In this document: positions 27,348 through 50,692 of the stretch, one piece after another
Numbering within the stretch: the first letter of the stretch is position 1
How the letters are laid out: every line of letters begins with the position of its first letter
Assembly: GCA_030765145.1 (NCBI GenBank)
Contig: JAVCDA010000010.1
Coordinates: 49,087-113,086, forward strand
Source of the DNA: Candidatus Saelkia tenebricola
GTDB taxonomy: Bacteria; Omnitrophota; Gorgyraeia; Kaelpiales; Kaelpiaceae
Length of the DNA stretch: 64,000 nucleotides
Reading direction: 5' to 3'
Translations under genes and position numbers: made by a program
The notes under the pieces: model-generated
The model's database searches: none
The model's input: only the letters and a program-made list of their open reading frames with translations
Told to the model about the DNA's origin: nothing

Positions 27348-29150
27348 TTAACTCTTCCTTTTTAAAATTGCAATACCAAACTCGTTGGATGTAAAAGGCA
27401 TGGGGCCGAATTGTTTGATAATTTCATAATTCTGATTTATCCAAGCCGAGATTTTCCTACCGTAATCAATACCGAAGAAAGCATAGCCGTATTCAGAGGT
27501 GGGCCTATGTATAATAACAAAATAATCTATATCATGACTCTTAATCTCATCTATCATTTTTTCTTCACCGGTTCTTTCACAGCAAGGAGGAACAAATGTA
27601 TAATACCTCAGAGGGTTTTTCCTCCCGGAATAAAAATTTATCCCTACCCCTTCAGGAACAACAACTACTGTATCTTCAACAGAAGAATGTTCTATCAAAT
27701 ACTCAACCGCCTCCCAATACCTCAATGTTTTAGGTTCGGGAAAACAAAAGATGCTCCCCATTTCCGTATCCACTTTTACATTTTTAAGAGCATAGAGATA
27801 AGAAGAAATACTCCAATAAGGATTGACTAAAAACAGAAAAAGACAAAAAAGCAGAGACTGAAAAAAAAGCATTGAAAAATTATTAATCCGAATCTTTTCC
27901 ACAACCTCCTTAACTATTTGAAAGAAAAAAATGTAATAACAAATAATACTTAAACTCATCATATAAAACCCATACCCGTAGGGAGTGGTTTTTAGAATAA
28001 TCCTGGCAATGGTTAAAAAAGAAATAAGAAATAATGAGAAACAAGCTATGTTTTTCTTGAAATTACCCCCATGAATCATCCTCCAAAAGAACAAACACAT
28101 CCCTATCAATAACAGTAAGACTAAGGATCTATATTGCAAAAAATTCTTACCTAATAAATTCCAAGCCAAGATGAAGGAAAATATTATAATTATTACTCCT
28201 CCTAATGATAAAACAAAATTAGATTCTTCTTTTTTATTTAGAAAAAATGATGATATTGAAACAGCGCCTATCCCCAAAAGCAAGATAACTATTATATGCA
28301 AGATAAATGATTTAATTATTAGATAGCTATTTAAGGCAACGTTATCCAGCCCTATCCAGCTTATATTAATTACATCGTTTTTCGTTATGCCAAATTTTAC
28401 AAGGTCCAAAACAGATTCTTTAAACCCCACGAATGCCTGCATTTTAATAATAAATAAAACATAGCATAGTATGCTGATAAAAAACGGAGCAATTAAGTAC
28501 AGATTAAATTGCCAAAATTTCTTTCTGTTGGTTTTTAAAATAAAAAATTCTCCCGCCAGAACAAACCCCGCCCAAACCGGTAGCGACATATCTCCCCGGC
28601 ATAAAAAAGCACATACTAAAAAACCTCCCCACCCCAAGAGGTTTTTTCCATTTTCATAATATATAAATTTTAAAAAATAATACAAAGCTGCCGTTATAAA
28701 CAATATGAAGAATGTTGCGGCAAAGCTATAAGGTAAAATAAAATTAAAAATCCCACCACTATAATACCCAAACGCAAAAACAAACATAAAAGTTATAATG
28801 ACCAAAAAAGACCCTGCTTCATTCAAAAAGAAACGGGATATTTTATAAAGAAGAATCGTCATTAAGGCGGTTATACCAACTCCTGCCCCGACTAAAGAAT
28901 AAATAGAAACCCCGAATATCTTGTATACTAAAGCCAATACATAGGGCGGTAAAAAACCGTATTCATGGAACAAATCTTTATAAATTACTCTACCTTCTAA
29001 AATCTGTAAAGGCATCCATAACTCTCGAGAAGTATCTACAATAAGATTGCCCCATTTAAGCCAGCTCGTAAAAAGCAGGTATATGAAACAACCAACTGCT
29101 GCGAGAAAAAATACTGTTGTAAGATTTATGCGCTTATATCCAATCCGCAT
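27348..29150 (-). CDS. Large polytopic membrane protein (600 aa) with a C-terminal soluble domain, possibly a GT-C-like glycosyltransferase or polymerase.
   Basis: At least 12 hydrophobic segments, and a C-terminal ~130 aa hydrophilic region with a CC pair. No recognisable catalytic motif. Confidence 0.3.
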   Translation of the reverse strand: MRIGYKRINLTTVFFLAAVGCFIYLLFTSWLKWGNLIVDTSRELWMPLQILEGRVIYKDLFHEYGFLPPYVLALVYKIFGVSIYSLVGAGVGITALMTILLYKISRFFLNEAGSFLVIITFMFVFAFGYYSGGIFNFILPYSFAATFFILFITAALYYFLKFIYYENGKNLLGWGGFLVCAFLCRGDMSLPVWAGFVLAGEFFILKTNRKKFWQFNLYLIAPFFISILCYVLFIIKMQAFVGFKESVLDLVKFGITKNDVINISWIGLDNVALNSYLIIKSFILHIIVILLLGIGAVSISSFFLNKKEESNFVLSLGGVIIIIFSFILAWNLLGKNFLQYRSLVLLLLIGMCLFFWRMIHGGNFKKNIACFSLFLISFLTIARIILKTTPYGYGFYMMSLSIICYYIFFFQIVKEVVEKIRINNFSMLFFQSLLFCLFLFLVNPYWSISSYLYALKNVKVDTEMGSIFCFPEPKTLRYWEAVEYLIEHSSVEDTVVVVPEGVGINFYSGRKNPLRYYTFVPPCCERTGEEKMIDEIKSHDIDYFVIIHRPTSEYGYAFFGIDYGRKISAWINQNYEIIKQFGPMPFTSNEFGIAILKRKS

Positions 29151-29153
29151 GTC

Positions 29154-30344
29154 TTAATATTGTGATAAAAAATTATCCACTGTGTTTAGAAAATACTCCA
29201 CGTGTTTATCTCCTAAATCCTGATGGACTCCGATATGTAAACCATGATTTCCGATAAATTCAGCGTTAGGGAAATCCCCCAAATTATATCCTAAAAAAGA
29301 AAAGCCTTCACATTGAGTAGGCATAGAAGAAAACAAATCCCTTGTTTCAATACCCTTCTTCTCTAAAAACTGAGACAATTCCTCTCTTGTAAACGGCGCA
29401 TCACTTGAGGCAATAACCGCAAAAGCATGGGGACCTATTTTTTCATACGCCTCTTCTTTGATAGTCGTTAAATAAGGTTTAAACCTTTGAAATCCATCCA
29501 CCATAGAGATTAAGTTCTTTCTCCGCCTTGTTATAATTTCCCCATAATGACTAATACTGCCTAAACCCACAGCCGCCTCTATTTCATTCATTTTAGAAGA
29601 ATAACCGATTCTCTCAAATATAAATCTGATATCCTTCCCGTTTTTAAACCTCTCTGGACAATATCCGGAATTAATATTTAAAATACACTTCTTACATTTA
29701 CATGCTCTGCCATGTGACCTTAAAGAACGTAAAATTGAAGCAAAATCTTCTCTATCTGTAACAACAATTCCACCCTCAATAGTCGTAATAATATGGGCTA
29801 TATACAAGCTGTAAGCAGCTATATCAGATAATGTTCCGATTTTTTTACCCTTATATTCAGCGCCATGGGCTTCAGCAGCATCTTCAATAACATAGAGTTT
29901 ATGTTTTTTAGCCAAAGCTGTGATTTTATCCATATCAGCAGGTTTACCCATAAGGTGAACTGGCATTATAGCACGTGTTTTTTCCGTTATAACCTGTTCG
30001 ATAAGACTTGAATCTATATTTAGAGTTTTTCTATTGATGTCAACAAATACAGGCTTAAATCCAGCCTCTAAAACAGCATTCCCCGTAGCAACAAAAGAGA
30101 GCGCAGGAATTATAATCTCGTCCCCCCGTTGTGCACCAAAATCATAAAGCACGGCCAATGCTAGAGCATCTGCATCTGTGCCGCTGCTTAAAGCAACCGC
30201 TTCTTTTACCCCTAAAAGCGATGCAAATTTTTCTTCAAATTCTCTAACATATTTACCGCAAGACAATCGATTAGAATTTACAATCTCTGTTATTAATTTT
30301 TTAGATTCCTCGGTAATAGAAATCGTACCAAAAGGGATTTTCAT
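29154..30344 (-). CDS. DegT/DnrJ/EryC1/StrS-family PLP-dependent sugar aminotransferase.
   Basis: Fold-type I AT with ..IMPVHLMGKPADMD.. . The coding sequence carries the Schiff-base lysine region. Confidence 0.75.
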   Translation of the reverse strand: MKIPFGTISITEESKKLITEIVNSNRLSCGKYVREFEEKFASLLGVKEAVALSSGTDADALALAVLYDFGAQRGDEIIIPALSFVATGNAVLEAGFKPVFVDINRKTLNIDSSLIEQVITEKTRAIMPVHLMGKPADMDKITALAKKHKLYVIEDAAEAHGAEYKGKKIGTLSDIAAYSLYIAHIITTIEGGIVVTDREDFASILRSLRSHGRACKCKKCILNINSGYCPERFKNGKDIRFIFERIGYSSKMNEIEAAVGLGSISHYGEIITRRRKNLISMVDGFQRFKPYLTTIKEEAYEKIGPHAFAVIASSDAPFTREELSQFLEKKGIETRDLFSSMPTQCEGFSFLGYNLGDFPNAEFIGNHGLHIGVHQDLGDKHVEYFLNTVDNFLSQY

Positions 30345-49980: not shown

Positions 49981-49987
49981 ATTATAG

Positions 49988-50692
49988 TCAATGCCAATAA
50001 AATTTTTCTTTTAACACTTGCATGAGATATGCCGCACCCCATTTCAGTACTTTTAATTTTCTTTCGCCTCCTATACGAGGAGGCTCATCTCCCGGAATAT
50101 CACAACATTTAAGTTTCTTTTTCCCCGCCCGTACAGATAAAAGCGGCTCAACACCTATTTTAGTGCGAAAAATTCTCTCTTCTGTTTGATAGCTTTCTTC
50201 CCGATCCAAGTCCAACGCTTTAAAAATTTCGCTCTTCCATCCCCTGAATATCACCATTGCATCAGTATAGCGTGCACCGTAAAGCAAATTTATTAAAGAA
50301 GTAAACATCCAGTTCCCAAAAGCTGTTATAACGTCATCATCATAACTCTTAACATCTTTTGCATAACGGGAAACTATCACCATATCATAGCCTTCGCTCA
50401 TTTTCTCTATTAATTCGGGAATTTTCTCTGGAATAGAATTTCCATCCGGACTAAAAGTAATAACAAAATCCGTCTTAACACACTCCATCGCTTCGATGTA
50501 AGCACAGCGTATACCTTCTTTCTTCTGTACTATTAGTTTATATCCACACTCTTTAACATATTTAATTGTCCCATCTGTAGATCCGCCATCAACAATGATA
50601 ATCTCGTCTACCCAGTCTTGGTTTATTTTTGGCATAATTATCTTCATGCCTTCAATTTCATTGAGGGTAAAAACCAATAATGTTACTTTCAT
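49988..50692 (-). CDS. Small GT2-like glycosyltransferase. Paralog of the gene at 38334-39011.
   Basis: MKVTLLVFTLNEIEGM..IIIVDGGSTDGT..SPDGNSIPEKIPEL. The same motifs appear in the same order as in the paralog. Confidence 0.5.
   Translation of the reverse strand: MKVTLLVFTLNEIEGMKIIMPKINQDWVDEIIIVDGGSTDGTIKYVKECGYKLIVQKKEGIRCAYIEAMECVKTDFVITFSPDGNSIPEKIPELIEKMSEGYDMVIVSRYAKDVKSYDDDVITAFGNWMFTSLINLLYGARYTDAMVIFRGWKSEIFKALDLDREESYQTEERIFRTKIGVEPLLSVRAGKKKLKCCDIPGDEPPRIGGERKLKVLKWGAAYLMQVLKEKFYWH

Follow-up and report, generated by a model that had tools for sequence, protein, structure and literature searches.

What could a bacterium make with a run of genes in which five radical S-adenosylmethionine (SAM) enzymes sit among enzymes of nucleotide-sugar metabolism and glycosyltransferases? 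This question is raised by an island of 21 open reading frames (ORFs) at positions 27348-50692 of a 64,000-nucleotide stretch of DNA (contig JAVCDA010000010.1, positions 49,087 to 113,086), which we call the window and which belongs to the Omnitrophota metagenome-assembled genome (MAG) of 'Candidatus Saelkia tenebricola'. All 21 ORFs lie on the minus strand; neighbours overlap by at most 16 nt or are at most 61 nt apart, and the majority of the junctions are overlaps or gaps of 1-10 nt. This map agrees with a first-pass annotation which had described about twenty co-directional and tightly packed genes. Its list of enzymes is likewise matched by the Pfam and NCBIfam domain content of the ORFs, apart from the corrections given below. 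Three of these are that the DegT-family protein does not appear to be an aminotransferase and that two ORFs overlooked earlier (32090-34387 and 27348-29150) read as GT-C glycosyltransferases. Judged by their strong profile matches, the genes of the island are real, and most of them have 45-75% identical orthologues in other phyla.

From the gene order in related genomes, we find that the island is a composite of a fixed 11-gene core, mobile nucleotide-sugar accessory genes and variable GT-C enzymes. We suggest that it is a cell-envelope glycosylation system using lipid-linked sugar donors, a reading to which we give about an even chance of being right.

The conserved core

In core order, the 11 genes are the following (SDR, short-chain dehydrogenase/reductase; ThDP, thiamine diphosphate).

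44922-46034, minus strand: core gene 1, radical SAM enzyme whose C-terminal domain is probably of the SPASM type (PF04055 39.8 bits; PF13186 SPASM 27.2 bits, cut-off 21.5)
44128-44937, minus strand: core gene 2, metal-dependent phosphoesterase of the PHP family which ends in a double zinc-ribbon (PHP_C 25.8 bits)
43095-44216, minus strand: core gene 3 (rSAM2), radical SAM enzyme with a twitch-like auxiliary-cluster domain (PF04055 81.5 bits)
41582-43093, minus strand: core gene 4 (B12a), class B radical SAM enzyme (PF02310 64.4 bits, PF04055 52.7 bits)
40761-41582, minus strand: core gene 5, N-terminal (ThDP-binding) half of a transketolase (PF00456 133.9 bits; NF004559 267 bits)
39823-40764, minus strand: core gene 6, C-terminal (pyrimidine-binding plus C) half of a transketolase (PF02779 and PF02780)
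39017-39919, minus strand: core gene 7, FabG-like classical SDR ketoreductase (adh_short 151.5 bits)
38334-39011, minus strand: core gene 8 (GT2b), polyprenyl-phosphate sugar synthase-like glycosyltransferase (PF00535 67.8 bits)
37363-38337, minus strand: core gene 9 (FclB), GDP-sugar epimerase/reductase-like extended SDR (PF01370 163 bits)
35837-37366, minus strand: core gene 10 (B12b), class B radical SAM enzyme (PF02310 70.9 bits, PF04055 78.6 bits)
34378-35844, minus strand: core gene 11 (B12c), class B radical SAM enzyme (PF02310 45.8 bits, PF04055 63.1 bits)

The 21 proteins of the island were searched against the six-frame ORFs of 83 loci (L numbers) with 10-kb flanks. The core recurs in the order given above in at least 13 loci, with protein identities of 45-74%, and the same order is present in every locus that has a B12a orthologue of more than 54% identity and enough flank. 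In the Omnitrophota these loci are L001/L008, L006, L007, L009, L011, L013 and L014; elsewhere we find them in Planctomycetia (L004, L007), Brocadiaceae (L010), Firestonebacteria (L015), Elusimicrobia (L021) and a bin named 'Patescibacteria' (L016). All of them come from MAGs and there is no isolate among them. Sometimes an extra B12 enzyme, a radical SAM gene and a DUF362-ferredoxin gene are inserted after the PHP gene.

B12a is 100% identical to an NCBI protein of 'Candidatus Saelkia tenebricola'. About 110 clusters are more than 50% identical to it (MAGs of Omnitrophota, Elusimicrobia, Firestonebacteria, Desulfobacterales and Brocadiales), beneath which there is a large tier at about 40% identity, and a scan of one genome per species yields at least 573 relatives. 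The genes of distant relatives (about 39% identity) often lie beside genes for GT2 glycosyltransferases, SDR epimerases, transketolases, GHMP kinases or 3-dehydratases of the His type described below, for example in L027, L031, L033, L035, L041, L058, L061 and L065. These neighbours support a general link of the B12a family with nucleotide-sugar metabolism.

The accessory genes behave differently from the core. Locus L004 contains 18 of the 21 island genes in a rearranged order: the genes for GT2a, the Cj1427-like protein, the PMT_2 protein, the kinase and the nucleotidyltransferase precede the core, and those for FclA, E1 alpha and E1 beta follow it. A YfhO-like gene follows the B12c gene in the window and in L009/L084, and we judge it to share contigs with B12a in at least seven further cases. 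The proposal that the island is a coherent sugar-tailoring unit has gained support, as the radical SAM genes are embedded among nucleotide-sugar and glycosyltransferase genes in at least four phyla. The possibility had also been raised that the island would split in relatives: the 11-gene core stays together, whereas the heptose genes and the E1 pair shift position. With these genes at differing places, and absent within 10 kb in two Omnitrophota genomes, a single fixed 23-kb pathway is not supported.

Several variants of the core deserve mention. The larger cores (L001/L008 6187-9945, L015 2932-6591, L004 7807-8940, L021 7420-8925) add a B12-domain enzyme after the PHP gene and one or two radical SAM genes. 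In L001, up to four B12-domain and four other radical SAM genes lie within 21 kb and are followed by a NodU/CmcH-type carbamoyltransferase gene. A 327-kb Omnitrophota contig carries the core on both strands, with the B12c and YfhO-like genes on one and the rest on the other, and has FemAB-like and class III aminotransferase genes 8-10 kb from the core. In the Elusimicrobiota genome GCA_022709755.1 (L002 7778-9764) a lone B12a homologue (51%) is located downstream of a transposase pair and a phage-type integrase and adjoins Wzy_C, GT4 and PMT_2 genes, a context which suggests mobility of single cassette genes. Two Candidatus Binataceae MAGs (L059, L032) have tandems of at least five B12a-related ORFs of 37-39% identity on one strand with no cassette genes near; this looks like an expansion of the B12a family.

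The only cultured organisms in which we found part of the gene set are the isolates Spirulina sp. 06S082 and CCY15215 (L033, L031). They have a mini-version on a 7.2-kb contig, consisting of genes for an E1-alpha-like protein, an FclA-like protein (42%), a B12a relative (39%), a Cj1427-like protein (59%), a GHMP kinase (46%) and a His-type 3-dehydratase. These isolates could serve for experiments.

The radical SAM enzymes

Five radical SAM proteins had been counted at first, three of them assigned to class B, which has a B12-binding domain, and two to the SPASM type. The total and the three class B enzymes stand. Of the remaining two, only 44922-46034 has a Pfam SPASM match, and 43095-44216 is twitch-like.

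The protein encoded at 44922-46034 heads the cassette with orthologues of 51-66% identity. Its residues C31/C35/C38 as well as C275, C293, C331 and C333 are conserved in 15 orthologues, and a CxxCx5Cx3C block is not present. It scores 67.5 bits with AhbD (cut-off 500) and has a weak match in the Protein Data Bank (PDB) to the archaeal tetraether synthase GDGT-MAS. In rSAM2 we found a Cx13Gx4C element and a C-terminal CC, and no Pfam SPASM match; C88/C92/C95 and C310, C329, C365 and C366 are conserved among 15 orthologues. The true start of this gene is probably at 44135, the orthologues having 345 amino acids (aa). Its NCBIfam scores are all low (AhbD 127.6 versus 500, NirJ2 115.8 versus 500, PqqE 102 versus 381, MftC 73 versus 265), and the nearest PDB entries are BlsE, a cytosylglucuronate decarboxylase which acts on a nucleoside sugar (59 bits), and MoaA.

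B12a, B12b and B12c all exceed the PF02310 cut-off of 32.1 bits. The cysteines of the CxxxCxxC motif are invariant in B12a (C222/C226/C229) and conserved in the orthologues of B12b (C205/C209/C212) and B12c (C225/C229/C232). A model of B12a calculated with AlphaFold2 (AF2; pLDDT 88.1) was compared with solved structures by Foldseek, and the top 17 matches are all class B enzymes, namely MgmA, AprD4, TsrM, CysS, TokK and OxsB (E 2e-22 to 2e-17, TMq 0.58-0.68), at a sequence identity to the solved members of 16-18%. Domain content, and in the case of B12a the compared fold, confirm the class B architecture of the three proteins. Among each other they are only 23-27% identical (B12b versus B12a 24%), and each has orthologues of 55-73% identity in other phyla (B12b 55-73%, B12c 63-67%). 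Low mutual identity together with conserved orthologues points to three distinct conserved functions.

The best NCBIfam matches are the Sden_1168 P-methyltransferase family for B12a (160 bits versus 575), BchE for B12b (142 bits versus 481) and HpnJ for B12c (149 bits versus 578), the latter closely followed by BchE (148 bits); overall the BchE scores of the island's radical SAM enzymes are 141-148 bits. It had been considered that these enzymes might profile as cofactor maturases or as enzymes of ribosomally synthesized and post-translationally modified peptides. By their NCBIfam scores, which are all far under the cut-offs, they do not count as either, and the tightly packed island has no room for a precursor-peptide ORF. 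A phosphonate pathway, for which the P-methyltransferase-like match of B12a and ThDP decarboxylases could be quoted, was rejected, as there is no phosphoenolpyruvate mutase in the window or in the related loci and 160 bits are far from 575.

Could the radical SAM enzymes tailor a membrane lipid instead, such as a hopanoid-like side chain, an ether lipid or the polyprenyl carrier? The mix of genes is like that of the hpn clusters, with HpnA as SDR, HpnB/HpnI as GT2, HpnH as radical SAM enzyme and HpnJ/HpnP/HpnR as B12-dependent radical SAM enzymes. Weak NCBIfam matches to HpnJ (149 bits), HpnR (64-94 bits), HpnH (63 bits) and HpnA (70 bits), and the match of the SPASM protein to the tetraether synthase, go in the same direction. 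All these scores, however, are 4- to 10-fold under the cut-offs, a squalene-hopene cyclase or other lipid-synthesis gene is found neither in the window nor in the related loci, and the GDP-sugar enzymes, the 3-dehydratase, the kinase and the nucleotidyltransferase would have no role. We therefore consider the tailoring of a lipid very improbable.

ThDP enzymes, phosphoesterase and ketoreductase of the island

Besides the split transketolase of the core, the island encodes a second ThDP system.

49003-49980, minus strand: ThDP subunit like the pyruvate dehydrogenase (PDH) subunit E1 alpha (PF00676 230.9 bits; TIGR03182 337 bits, cut-off 394)
47952-49001, minus strand: PDH-E1 beta-like subunit (Transket_pyr and Transketolase_C; NF006667 325.5 bits, cut-off 321)

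As had been noted before, the E1 pair lacks partners: no lipoyl, E2 or E3 gene was found in the 64-kb window, of which all ORFs of at least 100 aa and two shorter ones were scanned. Orthologues of E1 alpha adjoin the cassette in L004 (55%) and L015 (74%), and those of E1 beta in L004 (68%) and L010 (54%). The pair thus accompanies the cassette in L004, L010 and L015, and a distant B12a relative in L065.

The stop codon of B12a and the start codon of the N-terminal half of the transketolase share the sequence TAATG with a 1-nt overlap. The C-terminal half scores 184 bits with transketolase and 175 bits with DXS in NCBIfam. We aligned the split transketolase and its 14 orthologues with Escherichia coli TktA. 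Their ThDP and catalytic residues are conserved, and H26, H66, H100, D155, N185, H261, R358, E411, D469 and H473 are kept. S385 is replaced by F, Y or H and H461 by G in 15 of 15 cassette transketolases, and R520 is K or R. We take R358, S385, H461 and R520 of TktA to be the phosphate-binding set. Two canonical phosphate-binding residues are thus lost in all 15 proteins, which argues that the split transketolase is not the housekeeping enzyme of the pentose phosphate pathway. Synteny with the cassette and the altered phosphate-binding residues led us to discard a housekeeping role for the transketolase or the E1 pair. In a metagenomic protein of 790 aa (P0046), a B12a orthologue (63% identical) is joined in frame to the N-terminal half of the transketolase; this is either a real fusion linking both activities or due to a lost stop codon, and we use it as weak evidence only.

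The PHP protein scores 47.9 bits with the CehA/McbA metallohydrolase domain (cut-off 80). Its residues H8, H10, H71, H95 and H105 and eight Cys/His residues at 218-263 are conserved, and the orthologues (42-60% identical) always follow the SPASM gene. The ketoreductase gene probably starts at 39802 (Met40), which gives a protein of 261 aa, in line with orthologues of 261-264 aa and 57-74% identity.

The nucleotide-sugar module

The following genes surround the core and could provide its nucleotide sugar (PMP and PLP, pyridoxamine and pyridoxal phosphate).

47015-47950, minus strand: FclA, GDP-L-fucose-synthase-like SDR of the 3,5-epimerase/4-reductase type for a GDP-4-keto sugar (NF047922 GDPFucSynFcl)
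46078-47010, minus strand: Cj1427-like extended SDR, 310 aa (match to PDB 6vo6 of 395.7 bits, E 1.4e-117, residues 2-309, that is 308/310)
31033-32028, minus strand: HddA-like GHMP sugar kinase (GHMP N and C domains)
30341-31036, minus strand: HddC/ManC-like sugar-1-phosphate nucleotidyl (guanylyl) transferase (PF00483 106.9 bits)
29154-30344, minus strand: DegT-family PMP/PLP enzyme of the E1/ColD type (PF01041 324 bits)

The DegT-family protein had been annotated as an aminotransferase. Its active site has the motif SLYIAHIITTIEGG, in which a His takes the place of the Schiff-base Lys of S-x-x-x-x-K-x-x-x-x-EGG; the Lys is kept at that position in the aminotransferases 7b0m and 3bn1. The protein aligns over its full length to the E1 dehydrase 3bcx (190 bits, residues 4-393) and to ColD 2gms (175 bits), whereas the alignment with aminotransferases covers the N-terminal half only. 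Its His is aligned with the His of E1, and a CKCKKCx9C cluster sits at the site of the Fe-S motif of E1 (CYCAPGCDNTC). Both the His and the Cys cluster are kept in the 65% identical orthologue of the Elusimicrobia locus L021. The best NCBIfam match is RfbH (262 bits, cut-off 423). From the His-for-Lys exchange, the full-length alignment with E1 and ColD and the Cys cluster, we predict a 3-dehydratase for an NDP-4-keto sugar with an Fe-S motif. The first annotation as an aminotransferase does not agree with this active site, and an amino sugar as product loses its basis. An E3 reductase for this E1-type dehydratase was not found. More generally, the label 'DegT aminotransferase' can conceal 3-dehydratases.

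The Cj1427-like protein hints at a heptose. We take PDB 6vo6 to be Cj1427 of Campylobacter jejuni, a GDP-heptose C4-dehydrogenase. In the related loci L004, L015, L033 and L058 the Cj1427-like gene adjoins the GHMP kinase gene. The family is very large and very conserved; a search returned at least 8000 relatives of near-identical length which carry generic names only, so that no functional labels were gained. The enzymology of Cj1427 as a GDP-heptose C4-dehydrogenase is described in PMC10680097.

The kinase has the heptose kinases 3k85, 4n3o and WcbL 4usk as nearest PDB entries (135-148 bits; fucokinase 54 bits), and its HddA score of 168 bits is not at the equivalog level (cut-off 600). The nucleotidyltransferase scores 162 bits with HddC (cut-off 300) and 153 bits with mannose-1-phosphate guanylyltransferase. 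A heptose origin of the sugar, as proposed earlier, is strengthened by the 396-bit match to 6vo6 and the heptose-kinase relatives of the GHMP kinase. FclA aligns over its full length to NF047922 (356 bits, cut-off 500) and has orthologues of 49% identity in L004 and 42% in the Spirulina locus L033. FclB has GDP-L-fucose synthase (124 bits) and GDP-mannose 3,5-epimerase (108 bits) as nearest PDB entries. Because of the kinship of FclA and FclB to these enzymes, the nucleotide is probably GDP.

Glycosyltransferases

Apart from GT2b in the core, three more glycosyltransferases are encoded in the island (TM, transmembrane).

49988-50692, minus strand: GT2a, 234 aa, resembling polyprenyl-phosphate sugar synthases (DPM1/AglJ/ArnC-like; PF00535 57.9 bits)
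32090-34387, minus strand: YfhO-type GT-C, 765 aa, with about 11-13 TM helices, a beta-rich soluble domain of about 250 aa and a last TM helix (assigned from homologues and fold)
27348-29150, minus strand: PMT_2/ArnT-like GT-C, 600 aa, about 13 TM helices (PF13231 24.9 bits, E 2.7e-5; slightly short of the gathering score, 26.1)

The two GT2 proteins are 49% identical. Both match AglJ (GT2a 84.6 bits, GT2b 118.9 bits) and dolichyl-phosphate hexose transferase (54 and 82 bits) under the cut-offs. GT2a has a 71% orthologue in L004, and GT2b has the dolichol-phosphate-mannose synthase of Pyrococcus (5mlz) and ArnC (8vxh) as nearest PDB entries (41-46 bits). The 765-aa protein itself has no Pfam match; 9 of 26 homologues match PF09586 YfhO (best E 3e-8). 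The top PDB matches of its AF2 model (pLDDT 84.9) in Foldseek are the GT-C enzymes AglB, EmbB, ArnT, AftD and STT3. A profile-profile comparison of the family with PMT_2 gave a probability of 0.3 and a profile search of the PDB returned nothing; the assignment as a GT-C enzyme therefore rests on the YfhO matches of the homologues and on the fold. The cassette also has PMT_2 genes, often with TPR, as neighbours in L004 (30.9 bits), L021 (45 bits), L084 and the 327-kb contig.

The island had been regarded as a surface-glycan locus. It contains no initiating phosphoglycosyltransferase, no polymerase, no Wzx/Wzy and no ABC exporter, so it does not read as a locus for polymer assembly. With its GT2 and GT-C enzymes it rather resembles a three-component glycosylation system.

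Proposed pathway and alternatives

We suggest that the sugar is made and used in the following steps. The HddA-like kinase and the HddC-like guanylyltransferase would activate a heptose. The Cj1427-like dehydrogenase would oxidise C4 of the GDP-heptose (of another GDP-sugar in genomes with the core only), the E1-type PMP/Fe-S dehydratase would take off the 3-hydroxyl, and epimerisation and reduction would fall to the Fcl-like enzymes. A two-carbon branch on the keto sugar is most likely the work of the E1 alpha/beta ThDP pair, by analogy with YerE and AviB1/AviB2; an E1-type 3-dehydratase, ThDP enzymes and a ketoreductase occurring together fit the logic of yersiniose and avilamycin biosynthesis. 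The 11-gene core would then tailor the sugar, bound to GDP or already to the lipid, with its radical enzymes and with another C2 transfer that depends on ThDP. For at least some of the B12-domain enzymes our best guess is C-methylation, with deoxygenation or rearrangement as possible reactions, and from the two auxiliary-cluster radical SAM enzymes we would expect oxidation, epimerisation or decarboxylation. The GT2 enzymes would load the finished sugar or sugars onto polyprenyl phosphate. After flipping, the YfhO-like and PMT_2/ArnT-like GT-C enzymes would transfer it to an acceptor outside the cytoplasmic membrane. Candidates for this acceptor are lipopolysaccharide (LPS), proteins (a pilin or S-layer protein, for instance) and other polymers. 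The gene content, the active-site signatures, the fold assignments and the recurrence of the core in several phyla are observed here, and what we infer are the order of the steps, the substrate of every radical SAM enzyme, GDP as the nucleotide, the acceptor, and whether there are one or two donors.

More specifically, we propose that the 11-gene core is an undescribed route to a C-methylated, branched or chain-extended sugar which is built by radical SAM enzymes, borne on polyprenyl phosphate and installed by GT-C enzymes, and which is common to Omnitrophota, anammox and other Planctomycetota, Elusimicrobiota and Firestonebacteria. We hold this detailed version only tentatively, as somewhat more apt to fail than to succeed.

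A number of observations weigh against the proposed pathway. The title of 6vo6, which we take to be Cj1427, reads only 'putative sugar-nucleotide epimerase/dehydratease'. The HddA and HddC scores are so far under the cut-offs that the sugar could be another one. Neither gmhA (SIS) nor gmhB (HAD) is among the scanned ORFs of the window; GmhA and GmhB may be encoded elsewhere in the genome, and the PHP protein is a candidate substitute for the heptose 7-phosphatase. By hydropathy, GT2a and GT2b are without the TM helices typical of GtrB, ArnC and CsbB. The matches of 32090-34387 to GT-C folds are weak (E 3e-3 to 0.15). The island has no flippase gene (GtrA, ArnE/F, MATE) and no room for one. The fusion protein P0046 is known from a single contig of 2.6 kb, and an assembly error could have produced it. 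No radical SAM enzyme of the island reaches any curated NCBIfam cut-off, so the profiles do not assign their chemistry, and the highest TM-scores of the B12a model are those with AprD4, a diol dehydratase which does not methylate (0.68/0.74). Finally, in two Omnitrophota genomes (L001/L008 and L084) the 10 kb on either side of the core contain no heptose genes. The core may thus be independent of the heptose module and may start from a common donor such as GDP-mannose. The 327-kb contig, for its part, has two small EamA genes (141 and 125 aa, ArnE/ArnF-like) 8-10 kb from the core, and this pair is a candidate for the flippase lacking in the window.

A first alternative is that two independent donors are made side by side and the radical SAM enzymes never meet the heptose. 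GT2a, the Cj1427-like enzyme, the kinase, the guanylyltransferase, the 3-dehydratase, FclA, E1 alpha/beta and the PMT_2 protein would yield a 3-deoxy, possibly C2-branched heptose, and the core with GT2b and the YfhO-like GT-C would turn a common precursor such as GDP-mannose into another donor. The presence of two GT2 paralogues and of two GT-C enzymes would find a simple explanation. The gene order in L004, where GT2a is grouped with the Cj1427-like, PMT_2, kinase and nucleotidyltransferase genes and GT2b stays in the core, is also in favour, as are the constant place of the YfhO-like gene after B12c in the window and in L009/L084, the cores without heptose genes nearby, and FclB, which is like GDP-mannose 3,5-epimerase and would need no prior dehydration. 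On the other hand, the heptose genes lie on both sides of the core in the window, L004, L015 and L021, as if the whole were one unit, and E1 alpha/beta, GHMP kinase and His-type dehydratase genes also occur near distant B12a relatives (L033, L058, L065). Moreover, flanks of 10 kb cannot show a genome-wide absence of the heptose genes. We regard two separate donors as possible and on balance unlikely.

A second alternative keeps the lipid-linked framework and differs in the chemistry of the B12 enzymes, which would not be C-methyltransferases. Class B enzymes acting on sugars or glycolipids are GenK and GenD1 (C-methylation in gentamicin biosynthesis), AprD4 (3'-deoxygenation in apramycin biosynthesis), OxsB, and HpnJ, which contracts the ring of the hopanoid glucosamine. 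The B12-domain enzymes of the island could deoxygenate, contract or rearrange a ring (as OxsB and HpnJ) or cyclise (as BchE). An AprD4-like 1,2-diol dehydratase could work together with an SDR reductase as in the pair AprD4/AprD3, and the product would be a deoxy, rearranged or carbocyclic sugar. Consistent with this, AprD4 is also the best PDB sequence match of B12a (49 bits), HpnJ and BchE are the best families for B12c and B12b, and a ketoreductase SDR is conserved in the core. All these scores, however, are far under the family cut-offs, the methylases MgmA, TsrM, CysS and TokK are equally significant matches of the B12a model (E 2e-22 to 1e-18), the best NCBIfam match of B12a is to a P-methyltransferase family, and most characterised class B enzymes are methylases. 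Thus, C-methylation, which had been put forward at first, is plausible and unproven: no methyltransferase family is reached and B12a fits AprD4 at least as well. That the B12-domain enzymes do not methylate is, in our view, possible and on balance less likely.

Genomic surroundings

The island is located between housekeeping genes. Upstream are porABDG and genes for fructose-bisphosphate aldolase, methylenetetrahydrofolate reductase, a GH57 protein and ribonucleotide reductase; downstream are purB, purM, purD, purE and genes for serine hydroxymethyltransferase and NrdR. Every ORF of at least 100 aa between 19449 and 63929 is on the minus strand. In GC content (0.33-0.40) and skew the island does not differ from its flanks, so there is no compositional sign of recent transfer. 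A scan of the window with Rfam gave no RNA family and no riboswitch, the cobalamin riboswitch included. The borders of the island were also scanned for promoters and terminators; the results remained at the level of shuffled sequences and do not define the limits of the operon.

These surroundings bear on whether the core could be a secondary-metabolite cluster with a diffusible aminoglycoside-, nucleoside- or cyclitol-like product. For two of the radical SAM enzymes the nearest solved relatives are AprD4 and BlsE, from the pathways of apramycin and blasticidin S, and C2 branching by E1-like ThDP enzymes is known from avilamycin. The neighbourhood speaks a different language: the island has no exporter, resistance or regulator genes, it lies between the por and pur operons, and its hosts are uncultured anaerobes with small genomes. 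In addition, the DPM1/ArnC-like GT2 is invariant in the core, and GT-C genes adjoin it in the window, L004, L021, L084 and the 327-kb contig. A diffusible product is therefore very improbable, and we return to the glycosylation of the cell envelope, for which the following features of the window are of interest.

50832-51017, minus strand: candidate accessory ferredoxin, 61 aa, with a single [4Fe-4S] cluster (Fer4_13 55.5 bits), 139 nt upstream of the first island gene
394-1824 and 1821-3293: polytopic membrane proteins with C-terminal TPR and about 9 TM helices each
3326-4177: GT2 glycosyltransferase with two C-terminal TM helices
4243-4602: pilin-like protein with an N-terminal methylation motif
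4774-6609, plus strand: PMT_2 GT-C
6601-7278: GT2 glycosyltransferase, 225 aa, without TM helices

The ferredoxin may be the electron donor for the Fe-S dehydratase and the five radical SAM enzymes; its membership in the island is uncertain. In the relatives L004 and L015 a DUF362 plus Fer4 gene (2x[4Fe-4S]) is present inside the cassette. Between the ferredoxin gene and porB there is a lysine-rich ORF of 99 aa with a TTG start (51034-51333, minus strand).

The genes at 394-7278 form a second glycosylation gene set beside type IV pilus genes (PilZ, PilC, PilB, secretin; 7304-14280). This set may be a system for the glycosylation of pilins or surface proteins, and pilins could also be the acceptor of the island's sugar. 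At the other end of the window, 62913-63929 (minus strand) encodes DNA polymerase beta thumb and PHP domains and is probably the C-terminal part of a PolX-type polymerase; its PHP domain has no relation to the PHP protein of the island.

Significance

Outside antibiotic biosynthesis and the head groups of hopanoids, hardly any case is known in which radical SAM enzymes act on sugars. A conserved cassette that brings three to four B12-domain enzymes and two to four further radical SAM enzymes into lipid-linked glycosylation would be a new source of sugar chemistry and would probably give a new monosaccharide. What is of a known kind here is extracytoplasmic glycosylation with lipid-linked sugars; what appears new is the uncharacterised, phylogenetically widespread tailoring core rich in radical SAM enzymes. 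In the open-access full-text literature we found no description of a comparable cassette, which is consistent with the earlier statement that it has no described counterpart, although such a negative is weak evidence. Closest to it in the literature are the heptose pathways of C. jejuni (PMC10680097, PMC10440746), the three-component systems (PMC11127046) and a capsule locus of C. jejuni in which single, uncharacterised radical SAM genes occur.

If the proposal is true, class B radical SAM enzymes and carbon-carbon chemistry of the transketolase type enter the primary biosynthesis of cell-surface glycans, and several new radical SAM subfamilies with sugar substrates are defined. The cassette would mark the envelopes of widespread uncultured anaerobes, including Omnitrophota nanobacteria and anammox Brocadiaceae, and could bear on host attachment, on recognition by phages and predators, and on biomarkers. 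For five to eight orthologue families there is now a constrained substrate hypothesis, that is, GDP-heptose or GDP-mannose derivatives or their polyprenyl-phosphate forms; such a hypothesis is what orphan class B enzymes usually lack.

Comparison with known systems

Yersiniose is made by 3-deoxygenation with E1/E3, C2 addition by YerE and reduction by YerF, and the eurekanate branch of avilamycin by the E1 alpha/beta-like AviB1/AviB2. The island shares with these pathways that an E1-type 3-dehydratase, ThDP enzymes without E2/E3 and a ketoreductase SDR are found in one sugar locus. It differs in that YerE belongs to the acetolactate synthase family, that the known pathways start from CDP- or dTDP-hexoses and use no radical SAM enzyme, and that no E3 reductase was found in the island.

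In the capsule GDP-heptose pathways of C. jejuni, HddA, HddC, the C4-dehydrogenase Cj1427, a PLP-dependent C3-dehydratase and C4-reductases such as Cj1428 take part, and the enzymology of the dehydrogenase, the dehydratase and the reductases has been described (PMC10680097, PMC10440746). Common to both are the pair of kinase and guanylyltransferase, a very close homologue of the C4-dehydrogenase, a His-type 3-dehydratase and Fcl-like GDP-4-keto reductases. In contrast to C. jejuni, the island is without GmhA, GmhB and the cupin epimerase, and its dehydratase is of the E1 (Fe-S, RfbH) type and not of the ColD type. The C. jejuni loci described in these two papers have a heptose pathway without radical SAM enzymes, transketolase or E1 alpha/beta; the only radical SAM genes that we found in a capsule locus are single, uncharacterised ones of C. 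jejuni HS:19. The C. jejuni sugars are incorporated by cytoplasmic Leloir glycosyltransferases, and the island has GT2 plus GT-C enzymes.

The concept of three components, a polyprenyl-phosphate donor synthase, a flippase and a GT-C enzyme, has been reviewed (PMC11127046), and we compared the island with GtrA/B/C, ArnC/ArnEF/ArnT, CsbB/GtcA/YfhO and the system of polyprenyl-phosphoribose synthase, MATE and GT136. A GT2 that resembles the synthases goes together with a polytopic GT-C, the latter being YfhO-like and PMT_2/ArnT-like in the island. The island differs by the lack of a flippase gene, by GT2 enzymes without TM helices and by up to 17 tailoring genes, those of five radical SAM enzymes and of two ThDP systems among them, which would act ahead of the donor sugar. 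The donors of the known systems are common sugars (Glc, GlcNAc, L-Ara4N, Ribf/Araf).

With GenK, GenD1, AprD4, OxsB and HpnJ, finally, the B12-domain enzymes of the island have in common an N-terminal B12 Rossmann domain in front of a radical SAM barrel that carries CxxxCxxC (PDB 6fd2, 5ul2-4) and the carbohydrate context. In contrast to those, three distant paralogues are conserved together, and they belong to a putative envelope locus of uncultured phyla and not to an actinomycete antibiotic cluster or an hpn cluster.

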